From a virus (taxonomy: Duplodnaviria; Heunggongvirae; Uroviricota; Caudoviricetes): 53,254 bases of DNA. Location of the stretch: the IMG/VR virus record IMGVR_UViG_2563366998_000011, positions 1 through 53,254 of that record; one strand, written 5' to 3'. The translations under genes were made by a program, and so were the position numbers. The notes under the pieces are model-generated. The model did not search any database, was not told the DNA's origin, and worked only from the letters and a program-made list of their open reading frames with translations. Below are positions 6,362-27,359 of the stretch, one piece after another (within the stretch, counting starts at the first letter, position 1; each line of letters opens with the position of its first letter).

Positions 6362-6463
6362 TTATGGATTGATAAGAAGGAACAAACCGCCGAACAAAGC
6401 GACGTTAACAGCGATTGCAGCAGCGATGGCAAAGGCCAGGGCGAAAACGTGTTTACCGTCCAT
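6362..6463 (-). CDS. Small hydrophobic membrane peptide (33 aa)
   Basis: MDGKHVFALAFAIAAAIAVNVALFGGLFLLINP; GAGAGGA RBS 7 nt upstream; below track cutoff. Confidence 0.35.
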   Translation of the reverse strand: MDGKHVFALAFAIAAAIAVNVALFGGLFLLINP

Positions 6464-11173: not shown

Positions 11174-11398
11174 ATGATCGAAGATAAAGAAGTTGACAAT
11201 GAAATTCCTGACGGCGCTGATGAACTTATCACTTTCGGTGGCGGGCTGTACGAGTTTGAAACGTCGGCTGGGTGGACGGATAAGTGGCCTTTCCCAACGC
11301 GCCAGGAATTAAGCGTTCGTAAATCATTTGGCGAAGATGCCGAACGGCTGGCTAATAACAAGTGGCTTAATAAGTTTATTGCGGAGGGTGGCAAATGA
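11174..11398 (+). CDS. Hypothetical protein
   Basis: 74 aa ORF. Confidence 0.45.
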   Translation: MIEDKEVDNEIPDGADELITFGGGLYEFETSAGWTDKWPFPTRQELSVRKSFGEDAERLANNKWLNKFIAEGGK

Positions 11399-11508
11399 AC
11401 CTTGCAAAAATTGCCGCATTGCTTGCGGCTTTGTCTATCGCTGTGCTGTATCTCAGCGCATCTCTTTATATCACGGCAGCGATCATTAAACTCATTACTA
11501 ACATGTGA
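11395..11508 (+). CDS. Small hydrophobic membrane peptide (37 aa)
   Basis: MNLAKIAALLAALSIAVLYLSASLYITAAIIKLITNM; GGAGGGTGG RBS; ATGA overlap with upstream stop. Confidence 0.4.
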   Translation: MNLAKIAALLAALSIAVLYLSASLYITAAIIKLITNM

Positions 11509-11516
11509 GGCCAATT

Positions 11517-11636
11517 ATGAAAGTCGGTAAGGATATTGTGACTGTCGCGTTTTGCATTATTTGCTTCCTGTTTGTGTTTGTTTCTTGTGGCGCATTTGCT
11601 GCGCTGGTTAGCTTTATTTTCAGAGGGTTGCTGTGA
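11517..11636 (+). CDS. Small hydrophobic membrane peptide (39 aa)
   Basis: MKVGKDIVTVAFCIICFLFVFVSCGAFAALVSFIFRGLL; TGAGG RBS; stop overlaps next start. Confidence 0.4.
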   Translation: MKVGKDIVTVAFCIICFLFVFVSCGAFAALVSFIFRGLL

Positions 11637-24186: not shown

Positions 24187-24387
24187 ATGTTCGACAAAAT
24201 ACGGGCGGCGTGCGCTTATGTAACAGGGACCGTAACCGCTTTTTTTGGTGCGATAACCATTAATGACGTTGCCGTCTTTGTGGGTATCTTATCAACCATT
24301 GGCACATTTGCCGTTAACTATTACTTCAAATCACAGGAGAACAAGCGAGCGCAAGAGGAACACGACGCACGAATGGGGAATAAGTAA
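24187..24387 (+). CDS. Holin, pinholin-like (phage 21 S type)
   Basis: 66 aa; two TM segments then YFK and charged tail; GGAGG RBS; directly precedes SAR endolysin. Confidence 0.7.
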
Positions 24388-24388
24388 C

Positions 24389-24880
24389 ATGATTAGCCAA
24401 TCGCTAAAGAATAAAATTATTGCTGCGGCGGCTGGTGGGGCTATCGCTATTGCGGCTGTGATGGTTAAACCATTGGAAGGCGTGGAATATGATCCTTATC
24501 GTGATGTTGTCGGTGTATGGACTGTTTGCCACGGTCACACCGGAAAGGACATCATGCTTGGTAAGACTTACACGCAATTTGAATGCGATGCTTTGTTGAA
24601 CAAAGATCTACACAAAACCGCAAAAGCGATTGACCCATATATCAAAGTCGAAATATCAGATTTTACCCGCGCAGCACTTTATTCATTCGCCTATAACGTA
24701 GGCGCAACCAACTTCAAAACATCAACCTTATTAAAGCTACTTAATGACGGCAAGAAATCGGAAGCGTGCGCACAGCTTAAACGCTGGGTATACGCTGGCG
24801 GTAAGAAGTGGCAAGGCCTGGTTAACCGCCGTGATATTGAATATGCCGTTTGCGAATGGGGTGAAACATGGACAAGGTGA
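24389..24880 (+). CDS. R: SAR endolysin (lysozyme, phage 21 R type)
   Basis: ORF 24263..24880, ATG at 24389; N-terminal signal-anchor-release segment [15 protein letters not shown]; [33 protein letters not shown] matches phage 21 lysozyme as recalled. Confidence 0.9.
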
Positions 24881-25338
24881 AGACGTTAATCATCGCCGTT
24901 GTTGTTTGCATTATTGCCGGGCTTACCGCCGTAACGTGTTATTACCAGGGTGAGGCGGCAAGGTTACAGGAAGAAGTCACGGTGACGAAAGGCGCACTAA
25001 AAACAGCAAGTAACACTATCCAGCAGATGAAGGAGCGAAACGCCGAACTGTCAAAACTTGATAAGAGGTATCACGATGAGATTAAAGCTATCAGATCTGA
25101 CATTGCCGATCTTCGCGCTGGCATTGATAGCGGTGCTATCAGGTTGCACGTCAACGCCGAGCCAGTGTACGTGCACGACGCCACCGGAACCGCCAGCAGC
25201 ATTAATGGAGCCACCTGTAGACTTACTGCCAGTGCTCAATCAAATTATCTATCCCTCAGAGAACAACTAAAAGAGAAAGACGCGAAGATCACCGGATTAC
25301 AGGACTACATCAAAACGCAGTGCATACGCAAAGAATAA
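24868..25338 (+). CDS. Rz: Rz-like inner-membrane spanin
   Basis: 156 aa; N-terminal TM helix then coiled-coil periplasmic domain; follows endolysin. Confidence 0.8.
25076..25270 (+). CDS. Rz1: Rz1-like outer-membrane lipoprotein spanin embedded in Rz
   Basis: ORF 25058..25270 in alternate frame inside Rz; start MRLKLSDL at 25076 with AAGAGG; lipobox LSGC; Pro-rich. Confidence 0.75.
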   Translation: MRLKLSDLTLPIFALALIAVLSGCTSTPSQCTCTTPPEPPAALMEPPVDLLPVLNQIIYPSENN

Positions 25339-25606: not shown

Positions 25607-26179
25607 ATGGCTAAGGCTAAAGGCATTAAGTTGCCTCAATTCAAAGTCCCGCTCTTTGAGCATACAACCGTTTTCTTTTGCCCGACCCGCGAGATGTTCT
25701 ATGAATTTTGCGAAAAGGCCGGAATACCAATCGAACCTGATTTCGAACTAGCTGGCGGTCTGACGTTAACCTGTACTGGTGAGACCGGCGGTAATTTCTA
25801 CGTGATCGCAGTATTCAACAATGAGACTGGAACGCTGGTCCATGAATGCGCTCACACTACATTCCACGTTTTAAGTGATGTAGGCGTCGTGGCGACCACT
25901 GATCCTACTCATCCTGCGAATGAGACTTACGCTTACATGGTTGGACGTATCTTTGACGCATTCTTCCCAATCCTGGCTGAATCAAACGAAGCACAGATCA
26001 CAGCGATGCAGGCGGCTGAAGTCGTTGAGCAGGCGTTAGAAAAGGCAGAGCAGGCGACTGATGCAGCAGAACAGGCAGAGGAGCCGAAAGAAGAGAAAAA
26101 ACCAGCTAAGAAAGGCAAACGTAAGCCGAAAGCAAAAGAGGCGCTTGTACCGCGCGTTATGAGCTTTAAGAGAGGGTAA
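25607..26179 (+). CDS. Hypothetical protein with HExxH motif and Lys-rich tail
   Basis: 190 aa; VHECAHTTFH (HExxH); C-terminal KEEKKPAKKGKRKPKAK. Confidence 0.5.
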   Translation: MAKAKGIKLPQFKVPLFEHTTVFFCPTREMFYEFCEKAGIPIEPDFELAGGLTLTCTGETGGNFYVIAVFNNETGTLVHECAHTTFHVLSDVGVVATTDPTHPANETYAYMVGRIFDAFFPILAESNEAQITAMQAAEVVEQALEKAEQATDAAEQAEEPKEEKKPAKKGKRKPKAKEALVPRVMSFKRG

Positions 26180-26181
26180 TT

Positions 26182-26250
26182 ATGTTTACTTTTCTGTTAG
26201 GCGTATTTGTTGGCATAGCTGCCGCTGTGATCTTGATATACGGACATTGA
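26182..26250 (+). CDS. Mini-ORF a (22 aa) hydrophobic peptide
   Basis: MFTFLLGVFVGIAAAVILIYGH; AGAGGG RBS 6 nt upstream. Confidence 0.4.
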   Translation: MFTFLLGVFVGIAAAVILIYGH

Positions 26251-26254
26251 TATT

Positions 26255-26359
26255 ATGGATGCTTACATCATCGCCGGATTAATCGGCGTTTCTGTGTTTC
26301 TTGTGGGTTCTATTATAGTTGCGCTGATAAACGTATATATCAAGTATTTGGTGGGGTGA
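26255..26359 (+). CDS. Mini-ORF b (34 aa) hydrophobic peptide
   Basis: MDAYIIAGLIGVSVFLVGSIIVALINVYIKYLVG. Confidence 0.4.
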   Translation: MDAYIIAGLIGVSVFLVGSIIVALINVYIKYLVG

Positions 26360-26364
26360 AAAAT

Positions 26365-26439
26365 ATGATTGACCCGCTAATTATCCTTTCTGCCTGCGTC
26401 GCTGTATGGCTGGCGATCATGATATTCATTGAAAGCTGA
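26365..26439 (+). CDS. Mini-ORF c (24 aa) hydrophobic peptide
   Basis: MIDPLIILSACVAVWLAIMIFIES. Confidence 0.4.
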   Translation: MIDPLIILSACVAVWLAIMIFIES

Positions 26440-26450
26440 AGGTATCCACA

Positions 26451-26531
26451 ATGAACGCATACGAAATGCTATTGCTGGTGGCTGTTATTACAGTTATTGC
26501 CGTAGATGTTTATCGGGAGTTTAAAAAATGA
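26451..26531 (+). CDS. Mini-ORF d (26 aa) hydrophobic peptide
   Basis: MNAYEMLLLVAVITVIAVDVYREFKK; stop overlaps next start (ATGA). Confidence 0.4.
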   Translation: MNAYEMLLLVAVITVIAVDVYREFKK

Positions 26532-26596
26532 AATGGCTTGATTTCTTTTTCCTGATCGTTGCGATTGTTCTCACTATGACAGCGCTTGCTCAATAG
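26528..26596 (+). CDS. Mini-ORF e (22 aa) hydrophobic peptide
   Basis: MKWLDFFFLIVAIVLTMTALAQ. Confidence 0.4.
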   Translation: MKWLDFFFLIVAIVLTMTALAQ

Positions 26597-26604
26597 GTGA
26601 AAGC

Positions 26605-26679
26605 ATGAACGCTATTGATATTATGTTGATCGTGTGTACCGTTGCATTAGTTATTATTGGGGTGATTATCAATGTCTGA
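26605..26679 (+). CDS. Mini-ORF f (24 aa) hydrophobic peptide
   Basis: MNAIDIMLIVCTVALVIIGVIINV; AGGTGA RBS. Confidence 0.4.
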   Translation: MNAIDIMLIVCTVALVIIGVIINV

Positions 26680-26740
26680 TGGTGATTTCTTAATCATGGC
26701 TATATGCACGCTGTTAACTGTTATTGTTTTCTTCGCGTAA
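26672..26740 (+). CDS. Mini-ORF g (22 aa) hydrophobic peptide
   Basis: MSDGDFLIMAICTLLTVIVFFA; overlaps ORF f by 8 nt. Confidence 0.35.
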   Translation: MSDGDFLIMAICTLLTVIVFFA

Positions 26741-26749
26741 AGGTAAACA

Positions 26750-26833
26750 ATGAAAGAATTATTCGATTGGTTGGAAGTATTAACATACTGTGCAAGTTTT
26801 GTTGCTTGCGTATATATCATCAATAAATATTGA
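26750..26833 (+). CDS. Mini-ORF h (27 aa) hydrophobic peptide
   Basis: MKELFDWLEVLTYCASFVACVYIINKY; AAGGT RBS. Confidence 0.4.
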   Translation: MKELFDWLEVLTYCASFVACVYIINKY

Positions 26834-26843
26834 GAGGTGAATT

Positions 26844-27359
26844 ATGGCCCGCACTAAAAAGGCAAAAGCTGACGACAAAAAGCCAGCCGCAAAAAGGGTG
26901 GGCCGTCCGCATGGTTATACCGAAGAAAAGGCGTTAGAAATCTGTGAACTGGTGGCGGACGGTCAGAGCGTTAACAAAATTTCGAAGATGCCTGGTATGC
27001 CTACCCGTTCAACAATCCTGAAATGGTTTAGAGACGTGCCGGAATTCTCGGACATGTACATGCGCGCGAAGGAAATCGGCTTCGAGGTATTAGCTGATGA
27101 GATCCTCGATATAGCTGATGATGCTAAGAACGTTGATAAAGACCAACTACGCCGCCACCAATTAATGATTGAAACGCGTAAATGGTTATTGGCTAAGCTA
27201 CAACCGCGCAAATACGGCGAACGCGTCACACAGGAGATCGTCGGTAACAAGGAAGAAGCACCCGTCCAGGTAGAAGTAAATCAGACTACTGTCCTTGAGA
27301 TAATCGATAACCTGAATAAGGAGTACAATACTCATGGAGACTGCGACGACAAAGATTGA
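26844..27359 (+). CDS. Terminase small subunit
   Basis: 171 aa; basic N-terminus with HTH-like segment; GAGAGGTGA RBS; immediately precedes large terminase. Confidence 0.7.
   Translation: MARTKKAKADDKKPAAKRVGRPHGYTEEKALEICELVADGQSVNKISKMPGMPTRSTILKWFRDVPEFSDMYMRAKEIGFEVLADEILDIADDAKNVDKDQLRRHQLMIETRKWLLAKLQPRKYGERVTQEIVGNKEEAPVQVEVNQTTVLEIIDNLNKEYNTHGDCDDKD

Follow-up and report, generated by a model that had tools for sequence, protein, structure and literature searches.

An ordered and variable array of putative single-helix membrane microprotein genes adjoining the terminase genes of a coliphage

We examined a run of very small genes in the phage record IMGVR_UViG_2563366998_000011 of IMG/VR, all 53,254 nucleotides of which were analysed and are referred to below as the window. 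At positions 26182-26833 (652 bp), eight mini open reading frames (ORFs) of 22 to 34 amino acids, all with ATG starts, are packed on the + strand, and each of them encodes little beyond one hydrophobic helix. This run (the array) is embedded in a same-strand block of lysis and packaging genes. The eight ORFs (cassettes) are listed here under the letters of their families, and the array of the window is written ABCFHIJL. Each line gives the duplex energy of the Shine-Dalgarno (SD) sequence, the number of loci with the family among the 62 related loci described below, and the ratio of nonsynonymous to synonymous change (dN/dS, pooled Nei-Gojobori) in the cassette's own frame.

26182..26250, + strand: cassette A, MFTFLLGVFVGIAAAVILIYGH, 22 amino acids, starting 2 nucleotides past the stop codon of a gene for a 190-amino-acid protein; SD GAGAGGG, -8.8 kcal/mol; family in 32/62 loci; dN/dS 0.35 (other frames 1.08 and 2.33).
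26255..26359, + strand: cassette B, MDAYIIAGLIGVSVFLVGSIIVALINVYIKYLVG, 34 amino acids; SD -3.2 kcal/mol; family in 56/62 loci; dN/dS 0.23.
26365..26439, + strand: cassette C, MIDPLIILSACVAVWLAIMIFIES, 24 amino acids; SD GGTGGGGTGA, -6.8 kcal/mol; a GTG at 26356 is an alternative start (27 amino acids), and relatives conserve the ATG start; family in 59/62 loci; dN/dS 0.31.
26451..26531, + strand: cassette F, MNAYEMLLLVAVITVIAVDVYREFKK, 26 amino acids, with a short hydrophobic core and a basic C-terminal tail; SD -3.9 kcal/mol; stop codon overlapping the start of H (ATGA); family in 61/62 loci; dN/dS 0.24.
26528..26596, + strand: cassette H, MKWLDFFFLIVAIVLTMTALAQ, 22 amino acids; SD GGGAG, -6.9 kcal/mol; family in 59/62 loci; dN/dS 0.14.
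26605..26679, + strand: cassette I, MNAIDIMLIVCTVALVIIGVIINV, 24 amino acids, first half of an I-J pair, with a TAG/GTGA stop/SD junction directly 5′ of it; SD -3.7 kcal/mol; family in 46/62 loci; dN/dS 0.38.
26672..26740, + strand: cassette J, MSDGDFLIMAICTLLTVIVFFA, 22 amino acids, overlapping I by 8 nucleotides; SD GGGGTGA, -6.0 kcal/mol; family in 41/62 loci; dN/dS 0.28.
26750..26833, + strand: cassette L, MKELFDWLEVLTYCASFVACVYIINKY, 27 amino acids, with polar residues within the helix and a stop codon within the SD of the small terminase gene; SD -3.9 kcal/mol; family in 59/62 loci, plus one copy with a GTG start; dN/dS 0.09, the lowest value.

An earlier sequence-only reading of the window had described eight ATG ORFs that tile this stretch in varying frames, with stop/start overlaps and SD-like sites, and all eight were confirmed. 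It had also stated that the stretch contains no ORF of 60 amino acids or more, which proved correct for both strands of 26182-26833, the longest ORF being one of 58 amino acids with a TTG start on the minus strand. The eight cassettes use all three frames; F and H overlap by 4 nucleotides (ATGA, 26528-26531), I and J by 8 (26672-26679), and the remaining spacers measure 4-11 nucleotides. Together, the cassettes cover 92.6% of the 664-bp gap at 26180-26843 (+), and on the minus strand of this gap there are no comparable hydrophobic ATG ORFs. In 2000 dinucleotide-preserving shuffles of the gap, a mean of 0.87 such ORFs was obtained (maximum 5), with a mean coverage of 15.6%. The whole 53-kb window contains, on both strands, 30 hydrophobic ATG ORFs of 20-50 amino acids, 8 of which lie inside the 652 bp of the array. 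SD elements of the GGTGA, GGGAG or AAGGT type are present ahead of most cassette starts, and the mean duplex energy for all ATGs of the window was -2.1 kcal/mol, compared to the values listed above for the eight cassettes. The array region is T-rich (G+C of 0.36-0.42, relative to about 0.48 in the flanks), a composition to be expected from coding for Leu, Ile, Val and Phe, the codons for which carry T at position 2.

The array region matches the phages mEp021, mEp010, mEp013, mEp044, mEp515, mEp554 and MagusPhagus, and prophages in 34 of 5,426 complete E. coli genomes. The window is an mEpimmI-type (mEp021-like) E. coli phage. The mEpimmI group is a recently named set of Nus-dependent non-lambdoid coliphages (PMC11893012), and the paper that describes it makes no mention of transmembrane proteins, small ORFs or the array region. 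For comparison, 19 annotated loci and 44 loci found in IMG/VR via the terminase gene were assembled; one IMG/VR locus was too short at its 5′ end, leaving 62 loci for analysis. Scanning IMG/VR with the peptides as seeds yielded contigs of comparable length (mostly about 50-57 kb), the majority of which had already been obtained via the terminase gene. At all 62 loci, the two flanking genes are identical in kind, and the gap between them (318-1154 bp) is tiled by + strand ATG mini-ORFs. The test set beforehand for the proposed genes was that homologous phages and prophages should conserve their reading frames, and this conservation was observed across 62 loci.

Selection on these ORFs was evaluated frame by frame. 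It was found that the own-frame dN/dS was 0.09-0.38 for all 15 hydrophobic families with variation, whereas the other two frames gave values of about 0.5-2.9, and that the variable sites in cassettes are concentrated at third codon positions. The overlapping out-of-frame ORFs beginning MYRGGCYC and MHAVNCYC had dN/dS values of about 2 in their own frames. The second of these, a non-hydrophobic ORF of 40 amino acids in the window (26704..26826, + strand) that overlaps J and L, was rejected as a gene, its own frame giving a dN/dS of 2.11 and that of the overlapped cassette 0.06. The mean SD duplex energy of 231 distinct cassette starts was -4.88 kcal/mol, compared to -2.26 kcal/mol for the 397 ATGs that lie elsewhere in these gaps (Mann-Whitney p = 2e-29). 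Spacer lengths vary by locus, and the step from B to C is found in all three relative frames. Because the relative frame of neighbors is not conserved, the cassettes are independent of one another, and fusion into a larger protein by read-through or frameshifting is excluded. The frame-specific selection, the SD enrichment and the results of shuffling uphold the earlier suggestion that these are genuine mini-genes and not an artefact of T-rich sequence. We have high confidence that the cassettes are real, selected and independently translated genes for predicted membrane microproteins, and the array appears to be neither a non-coding RNA nor the longer ORFs annotated in GenBank.

Clustering of 664 ORFs from the gaps gave about 16 hydrophobic families and one hydrophilic family of 47 amino acids, M. 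In addition to the eight families listed above, the hydrophobic families were found at the following numbers of the 62 loci: D at 39, E at 27, G2 at 20, G1 at 18, K at 15, A′ at 14, A′′ at 11 and D′ at 9. There are 3-13 cassettes per array (median 9, for 53 distinct gap sequences) and 43 array compositions among the 62 loci, with a constant cassette order: [A, A′, A′′ or one of two rarer alternatives]-B-D′-C-D-(rare)-E-F-G1-H-I-J-G2-K-L-M. The smallest arrays have three cassettes (ABL), and the plaque-forming phage mEp021 has five (C, F, G1, H and L). Certain combinations are not random: I and J occur together at 33 loci, I alone at 3 and J alone at none (Fisher p = 3.5e-11); G1, which follows F, and G2, which follows J, are mutually exclusive, with no locus having both and 18 and 17 having one or the other (p = 1.5e-4); and, at the first position, A excludes A′ and A′′.

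The junctions across loci consist of 0-17-nucleotide spacers or overlaps of 1, 4 or 8 nucleotides, as in coupled operon genes. A TAG stop codon is fused to a GGTGA SD at the D-E, D-F and H-I junctions, and an ATGAAC start is common to D, F and I. Cassette loss is exact to the ORF boundary, and decaying cassettes were also seen: J with ATG changed to ACG at four loci, D with a premature TAG at one, and the GTG-start copy of L. One contig has a flank gene of merely 59% identity, beside which C, D, F, H, I, J and L are near-identical; therefore, cassettes have been exchanged horizontally within the group. These results show that about 16 cassette families persist in the phage lineage as an ordered pool, which is reshuffled by precise loss and gain at short junction homologies.

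Relationships among the families were evaluated by pairwise z scores. The sequence-only reading had proposed two paralogous groups in the window, F with I and B, and H with L, and neither was individually significant. Paralogy itself was recovered once the cassettes of related phages were included (H with G1 and G2; F with D′ and D; A with A′′), the significant pairs being G1-G2 (z = 10), F-D′ (9.8), A-A′′ (6.8), H-G2 (6.6), H-G1 (5.9) and D-D′ (4.2). In all, 23% of 231 family pairs were above z = 2.

Two further features of the slot were noted. Where I and J are missing between H and L (arrays of the mEp021 type; L003 1822-1890, L004 2169-2227 and L005 2000-2058), the junction contains the sole long spacer, of 23-59 nucleotides, which holds the perfect palindrome GCGCAT-TTT-ATGCGC; possible interpretations of it are a small hairpin, a regulatory site and a scar left by recombination. 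At eight loci, an extra hydrophilic and acidic ORF of 47 amino acids (MNDEELKIADEIRK...) lies between L and the small terminase gene (for example, L008 2246-2389, L015 2553-2696 and L019 2357-2500), and it is the sole member of the slot that is not a membrane protein; no other member is annotated by PGAP.

The encoded peptides have a hydrophobic core of 13-21 residues in the cassette families. The summed Hessa insertion energy was negative in all but four of the 16 families, the marginal ones being F, L, D and D′. In the window, it was negative for six of the eight peptides, F and L again being marginal, which largely agrees with the single helix attributed to each peptide by the sequence-only reading. 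Asp or Glu is present at positions 2-6 in 17 of 20 families, most often at position 5, and Lys or Arg, where present, is found only toward the C terminus (YREFKK, WWKNVV, INKY, GSIK and a +4 tail in K). The acidic N termini, the basic C termini and the positive-inside rule predict a topology with the N terminus out and the C terminus in. Acidic N-terminal tails aid the membrane-potential-driven translocation of such tails, as in the Pf3 coat protein. Small membrane proteins of less than about 45-50 amino acids are inserted post-translationally, via the signal recognition particle (SRP), into SecYEG or YidC (PMC12648545). Since a peptide of 22-34 amino acids is off the ribosome before it can be bound by any targeting factor, insertion of the cassette peptides should likewise be post-translational, by way of SRP to YidC or SecYEG (PMC12648545).

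First-position swaps that convert one hydrophobic NTN codon into another have a rate 0.47 times that of fourfold-synonymous changes, and this ratio indicates selection on more than hydrophobicity, yet with considerable tolerance. Hydrophobicity is lowest in the most widespread and constrained cassettes, F and L, whose helices contain polar or charged residues. This pattern suggests that specific contacts, rather than bulk membrane effects, may be what is conserved.

Signals for separate transcription or for a functional RNA were also sought in the array. Promoter-like sites numbered 7, with 7.3 expected, and terminator-like sites likewise showed no excess over shuffles, so there is no sign that the array is an independent transcription unit. 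The minus strand had merely two weak 9/12 promoter matches and no excess of antisense promoters. No tRNA or tmRNA was found in the region. A structured non-coding RNA had been named beforehand as the alternative to coding function; no Rfam family reached threshold, none of the antitoxin RNAs Sib, OhsC, Rdl, Sok or IstR was detected up to E = 1, and folding of the array relative to shuffles gave z = -1.43, with no excess structure. A sub-threshold match to the Rfam S15 leader spans the junction between L and the terminase gene (26791-26872, +; 22 bits compared to a gathering cut-off of 39.5, E = 0.03) and was treated as chance.

The eight peptides were compared to PHROGs, Pfam, NCBIfam and PADLOC (E up to 1; K was also included for NCBIfam and PADLOC), and nothing meaningful was found, the best toxin match being CD_typeI_toxin at 11.6 bits relative to a cut-off of 60. 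In a collection of 15 billion proteins, B, F and the 47-amino-acid K were the only array families present; A, C, H, I, J and L, or six of the eight peptides, were absent. B was found in 174 contigs under the names "hypothetical" or "putative membrane protein", and F in one record of a metagenome-assembled phage. An exhaustive phmmer search of 1.84 billion cluster representatives with B returned 2 related sequences. A 327-amino-acid query of concatenated peptides had no match at E <= 1 among 5.8 billion proteins, which is probably due to composition filters and uncalled short ORFs and is not evidence of absence. When 50,697 phage records were searched by tblastn, the peptides were found in seven mEpimmI-type phages only, and a degenerate DNA pattern of cassette C had no match in one genome per species of 100,044 species; these scans gave no evidence of the array outside E. 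coli.

PGAP leaves the array blank in most related genomes. PHANOTATE, and PGAP in the case of one coding sequence (CDS) of 67 amino acids, called ORFs of 47-67 amino acids across two cassettes in the wrong frame (L001 1840-2043, L002 1568-1771 and L018 1829-2032), and in E. coli O157:H7 LSU61, a 129-amino-acid antisense CDS was called over cassettes A-D (L010 1567-1956, minus strand). These longer or antisense CDSs look like mis-annotations, contradicted by the frame-specific dN/dS. A literature search found neither a publication that describes this array nor an earlier description of a dense, ordered, combinatorially variable array of one-helix proteins in phages.

The genes around the array are as follows.

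24187-24387, + strand: pinholin-like holin, 66 amino acids, two transmembrane domains (TMDs); the holin of a relative bears the Pfam label Phage_holin_2_3.
24389-24880, + strand: signal-anchor-release (SAR)-type endolysin with a Gly/Ala-rich, SAR-like N-terminal segment.
24868-25338, + strand: Rz, with the embedded lipoprotein gene Rz1 at 25058-25270 (+ strand).
25607..26179, + strand: constant upstream flank, 190-amino-acid protein (phrog_1365) with an invariant HExxH (H79, E80, H83) and a K/E-rich C-terminal tail.
26844..27359, + strand: constant downstream flank, small terminase subunit of the Sf6 type (PF20901 1e-37, phrog_1482 5e-52), followed by the large terminase gene.

The lysis cassette (24187-25338) looks like the pinholin plus SAR-endolysin type. 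An endolysin start at 24263, which gives the longest ORF, is probably too far upstream; the enzyme is annotated in relatives at 163 amino acids, corresponding to a start at 24389. The sequence-only reading had placed the array between the lysis cassette and the terminase genes; however, the lysis cassette does not abut the array, because a gap of 268 bp after Rz/Rz1 (end at 25338) and then the 190-amino-acid gene intervene. When the cassettes were set against the TMDs of the phage's lysis proteins (holin, SAR endolysin, Rz and Rz1), z was at most 3.0 in 64 comparisons, which was unconvincing, and an origin of the cassettes from these lysis proteins was rejected.

The gene for the 190-amino-acid HExxH protein directly precedes the array at 62 of 62 loci. 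Its homologues (Orf129, ORF47 and hkcC) occupy the same lysis-terminase junction in P22-like phages, where ordinary genes come next and there is no array, and all the named homologues are from E. coli. No Pfam match was found for this protein, a PDB profile search was without match, and its AlphaFold model had a mean predicted local distance difference test (pLDDT) score of 49.6. In one public record, a relative with 59% identity is labelled "PolyVal Metallopeptidase superfamily domain". Genes for HNH homing endonucleases were seen at differing points of the late region, between the flank gene and the array in mEp013 (L005 999-1484) and between the endolysin and Rz genes in a metagenomic contig (L110 2752-3273); such insertions may contribute to mosaicism around the array.

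Our interpretation, to which we give a slightly better than even chance as a whole, is that the array consists of eight separate, translationally coupled genes for single-TMD microproteins that would be expressed late and would act through intramembrane binding. The genes would be transcribed on a late read-through transcript shared with the lysis and terminase genes. The peptides, once released, would be inserted post-translationally into the inner membrane, with the N terminus out and the C terminus in, and late in infection they would make sequence-specific helix-helix contacts with other membrane proteins. The cassettes would be accessory and partly redundant. Action through helix contacts is suggested by the general behavior of small membrane proteins (PMC12648545) and by the specificity that a helix of this size can have, as 26-residue single-helix proteins recognize target TMDs with single-methyl specificity (PMC5597333).

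As for what is contacted, the timing or execution of the membrane step of lysis (the holin and SAR endolysin, or the proton-motive force) is a tentative candidate. Holin/SAR-endolysin systems are sensitive to TMD interactions and to the membrane potential. Host inner-membrane proteins, including those with defence or exclusion functions, are an equally tentative candidate, considered because variable content in a fixed slot resembles counter-defence loci. Some other target is a possibility that we rank just below these, and a non-specific perturbation of the membrane seems unlikely. Lysis modulation and superinfection exclusion had already been guessed at, alongside type I toxin-like activity, in the sequence-only reading. 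A bolder version of the proposal, which we regard as rather doubtful, is that recombination has shuffled the array into a library of single-helix transmembrane binders, each tuned to the TMD of a different host or phage membrane protein; membrane-embedded effectors of abortive infection or defence, and entry or exclusion machinery, would then be conceivable, if speculative, targets. If true, the presence and absence of cassettes would record an arms race, and 20-30-amino-acid intramembrane effectors would form a new class of counter-defence or host-takeover locus.

Several points weigh against action by specific intramembrane binding late in infection. Position, strand and the lack of a promoter signal are the sole basis for late expression. 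Exchanges of one hydrophobic residue for another proceed at about half the neutral rate, so the contacts could be only loosely specific. There is no universal cassette, and arrays of three or five cassettes exist, and therefore any role would be dispensable in the laboratory. The cassettes lack similarity to the TMDs of the phage's own holin, SAR endolysin and spanins, and the 268-bp gap and the 190-amino-acid gene separate them from the lysis cassette; both observations also speak against a direct role in lysis. The pairs that were pooled for dN/dS are not independent. Finally, the translation, the membrane insertion and any effect of the cassettes are predictions from sequence.

The peptides might instead be toxin-like membrane poisons that depolarize or form pores non-specifically in the manner of Ibs, ShoB and TisB, either contributing to the collapse of the membrane potential at lysis or acting as a type I toxin-antitoxin array that stabilizes the prophage. 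Their size and extreme hydrophobicity do resemble those of Ibs-type toxins, and holin/SAR-endolysin systems of this kind respond to depolarization, as is established in lysis biology; type I toxins also occur in prophages, at times in tandem (PMC12648545; see also PMC2887945). We nevertheless consider this explanation unlikely. There is no excess of antisense promoters, no Rfam antitoxin RNA and no Pfam or NCBIfam toxin match, and these are back-to-back, SD-preceded operon genes, whereas stand-alone type I loci have structured 5′ untranslated regions (UTRs). Furthermore, several families are without the positive charges that are often essential for membrane toxins (PMC12648545), and the constraint on the sequences exceeds hydrophobicity. 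A different view is that selection acts on the translation of hydrophobic segments as such, which might, for example, tether late mRNA near the membrane or load SRP, YidC and SecYEG, the peptides being by-products without specific activity. It would account for the fair tolerance of hydrophobic swaps (ratio 0.47) and for the free variation in cassette number and identity, and an mRNA that encodes a small membrane protein can be directed to SecY or YidC in its own right (PMC12648545). We judge it to be quite improbable, given that the most conserved cassettes are the least hydrophobic, that L is almost invariant (dN/dS 0.09), and that conservation extends to the acidic motif at the N terminus and to specific polar residues. 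The I-J pairing and G1/G2 exclusivity suggest distinct functions per cassette, and peptides of 22-27 amino acids exit the ribosome too early for a targeting factor to retain the mRNA during translation (PMC12648545).

The two remaining explanations deny that the cassettes are genes. One is that the region is a T-rich non-coding spacer, an RNA that is structured or regulatory, or a DNA site related to packaging, with ORFs that arise from composition; consistent with this are its T-richness and low G+C, the tendency of T-rich sequence toward hydrophobic ORFs (PMC11188072) and the blank left by PGAP in most genomes. It is close to refuted and in our opinion very improbable, as shuffles never matched the observed tiling, purifying selection is frame-specific in 15 families, SDs are enriched at the starts, cassette gain and loss respect ORF boundaries, and neither an Rfam family at threshold nor excess folding was found. 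The other, that the real genes are the annotated ORFs of 47-67 amino acids from PHANOTATE and PGAP or the 129-amino-acid antisense ORF of LSU61, has in its favor that such CDSs were deposited for MagusPhagus, mEp010, mEp013, mEp044, mEp554, WCHEC025970 and LSU61. We find it scarcely credible. Selection follows the cassette frame (for D, a dN/dS of 0.26 in its own frame compared to 1.61 and 1.36 in the other two), conservation is lacking for the extensions and for the antisense ORF, the array of the window has no ORF of 60 amino acids or more, and the antisense strand of a hydrophobic coding sequence would, from the genetic code, be naturally poor in stop codons.

The array was also compared to known systems. 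Bacterial small membrane proteins of up to 50 amino acids, such as AcrZ, CydX, KdpF, MgtS and YohP, are alike in having a single transmembrane helix and in being missed by gene finders; they are expected to be inserted post-translationally and to work by binding larger membrane proteins (PMC12648545), and hydrophobic intergenic small ORFs under purifying selection have been catalogued in Enterobacteriaceae (PMC11188072). In length, single predicted TMD, frame conservation and SD sequences, the array peptides appear to fit this operational class. However, the bacterial proteins are encoded by single genes, each beside or regulating a known partner, whereas the array consists of 8-13 head-to-tail genes in one phage slot, and its microproteins are unrelated or paralogous, form combinatorially variable but colinear sets and have no similarity to curated families. 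The array is a set of small membrane proteins of a familiar sort in an unusually dense, colinear and combinatorially variable arrangement.

Type I toxins (Ibs, ShoB, TisB, Ldr and Hok) are also very small and hydrophobic, and some of their loci are tandem (ibs, ldr) or in prophages. A type I unit, however, comes with a promoter of its own, a 5′ UTR that is structured and delays translation, and an antitoxin in the form of antisense RNA, whereas the array is without these signals and lies inside an operon. Assignment to this class was rejected: small hydrophobic ORFs are present, but no signal of an antisense RNA or its promoter, no stand-alone locus with a UTR and no family match was found. 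Three or four consecutive ORFs of 20-35 amino acids with their own SDs are known in Staphylococcus aureus psm-alpha and in multi-peptide leaderless bacteriocins such as aureocin A70. These peptides are amphipathic or cationic, are exported and act on other cells, whereas the array peptides are uniformly hydrophobic with acidic N termini, and there is no exporter gene nearby.

Among phage lysis proteins, the Mu releasin gp25 (DUF2730) is a late, small protein with the N terminus out and the C terminus in, encoded downstream of the SAR endolysin and spanins (PMC9239132). The topology of the array peptides is probably similar, but they are without its cytoplasmic domain of about 70 amino acids (tails of 0-9 amino acids in the window) and have no DUF2730 or other Pfam match, and a Mu-type releasin was rejected. 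The lysis cassettes of actinobacteriophages, with up to four holin-like TMD proteins (PMC11385102, PMC13056207), are the nearest phage precedent for multiple TMD genes. Antiholins, releasin and these holin-like proteins have 70-130 amino acids and soluble domains, lie beside the endolysin and belong to recognizable families, in contrast to the array peptides of 22-34 amino acids with almost no extramembrane residues. The cassettes were likewise rejected as holins or antiholins, as a TMD is present but there is no PHROG or Pfam holin match and the location is not beside the endolysin; the phage already has the 66-amino-acid holin at 24187-24387, outside the array.

A near-bare transmembrane helix that binds specific TMDs, as proposed here, has parallels in papillomavirus E5 and in artificial 26-residue "traptamers" (PMC5597333), although E5 is eukaryotic, with one protein per virus, and serves as a mechanistic analogy only. 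Variable accessory slots, such as the lysis-terminase junction of P22-like phages, resemble the array in their fixed position, conserved flanks and variable small genes. Anti-CRISPR loci and the hyperplastic regions of T4 are further slots of this kind. They hold soluble proteins of ordinary size, however, whereas the slot described here holds single-helix microproteins in a fixed order.

The array means that pangenome and core-gene counts for this common group of gut coliphages miss a whole class of genes, 8-13 per genome, that is invisible to standard annotation. It offers a natural test set for the function and specificity that a bare transmembrane helix can carry in bacteria, and a compact, easily deleted locus in which roles in lysis timing, membrane energetics, exclusion and counter-defence can be sought. 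Its junctions, with stop codons fused to the next SD and shared ATGAAC starts, are a simple model of the duplication, divergence and loss of microprotein genes.

Outside the array, three isolated hydrophobic mini-ORFs of 33, 37 and 39 amino acids lie in unannotated gaps of the window at 6362-6463 (- strand), 11395-11508 (+ strand) and 11517-11636 (+ strand). The sequence-only reading had called them similar to the array peptides; they do exist as described, but their sequences are unrelated to those of the cassettes. The frames at 11395-11508 and 11517-11636 are kept open in mEp021 (91% DNA identity), where the differences by codon position are 1/2/2 and 2/2/6, numbers too few for judging selection. 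These two mini-ORFs are just upstream of a gene annotated in mEp021 as a toxin-antitoxin subunit.

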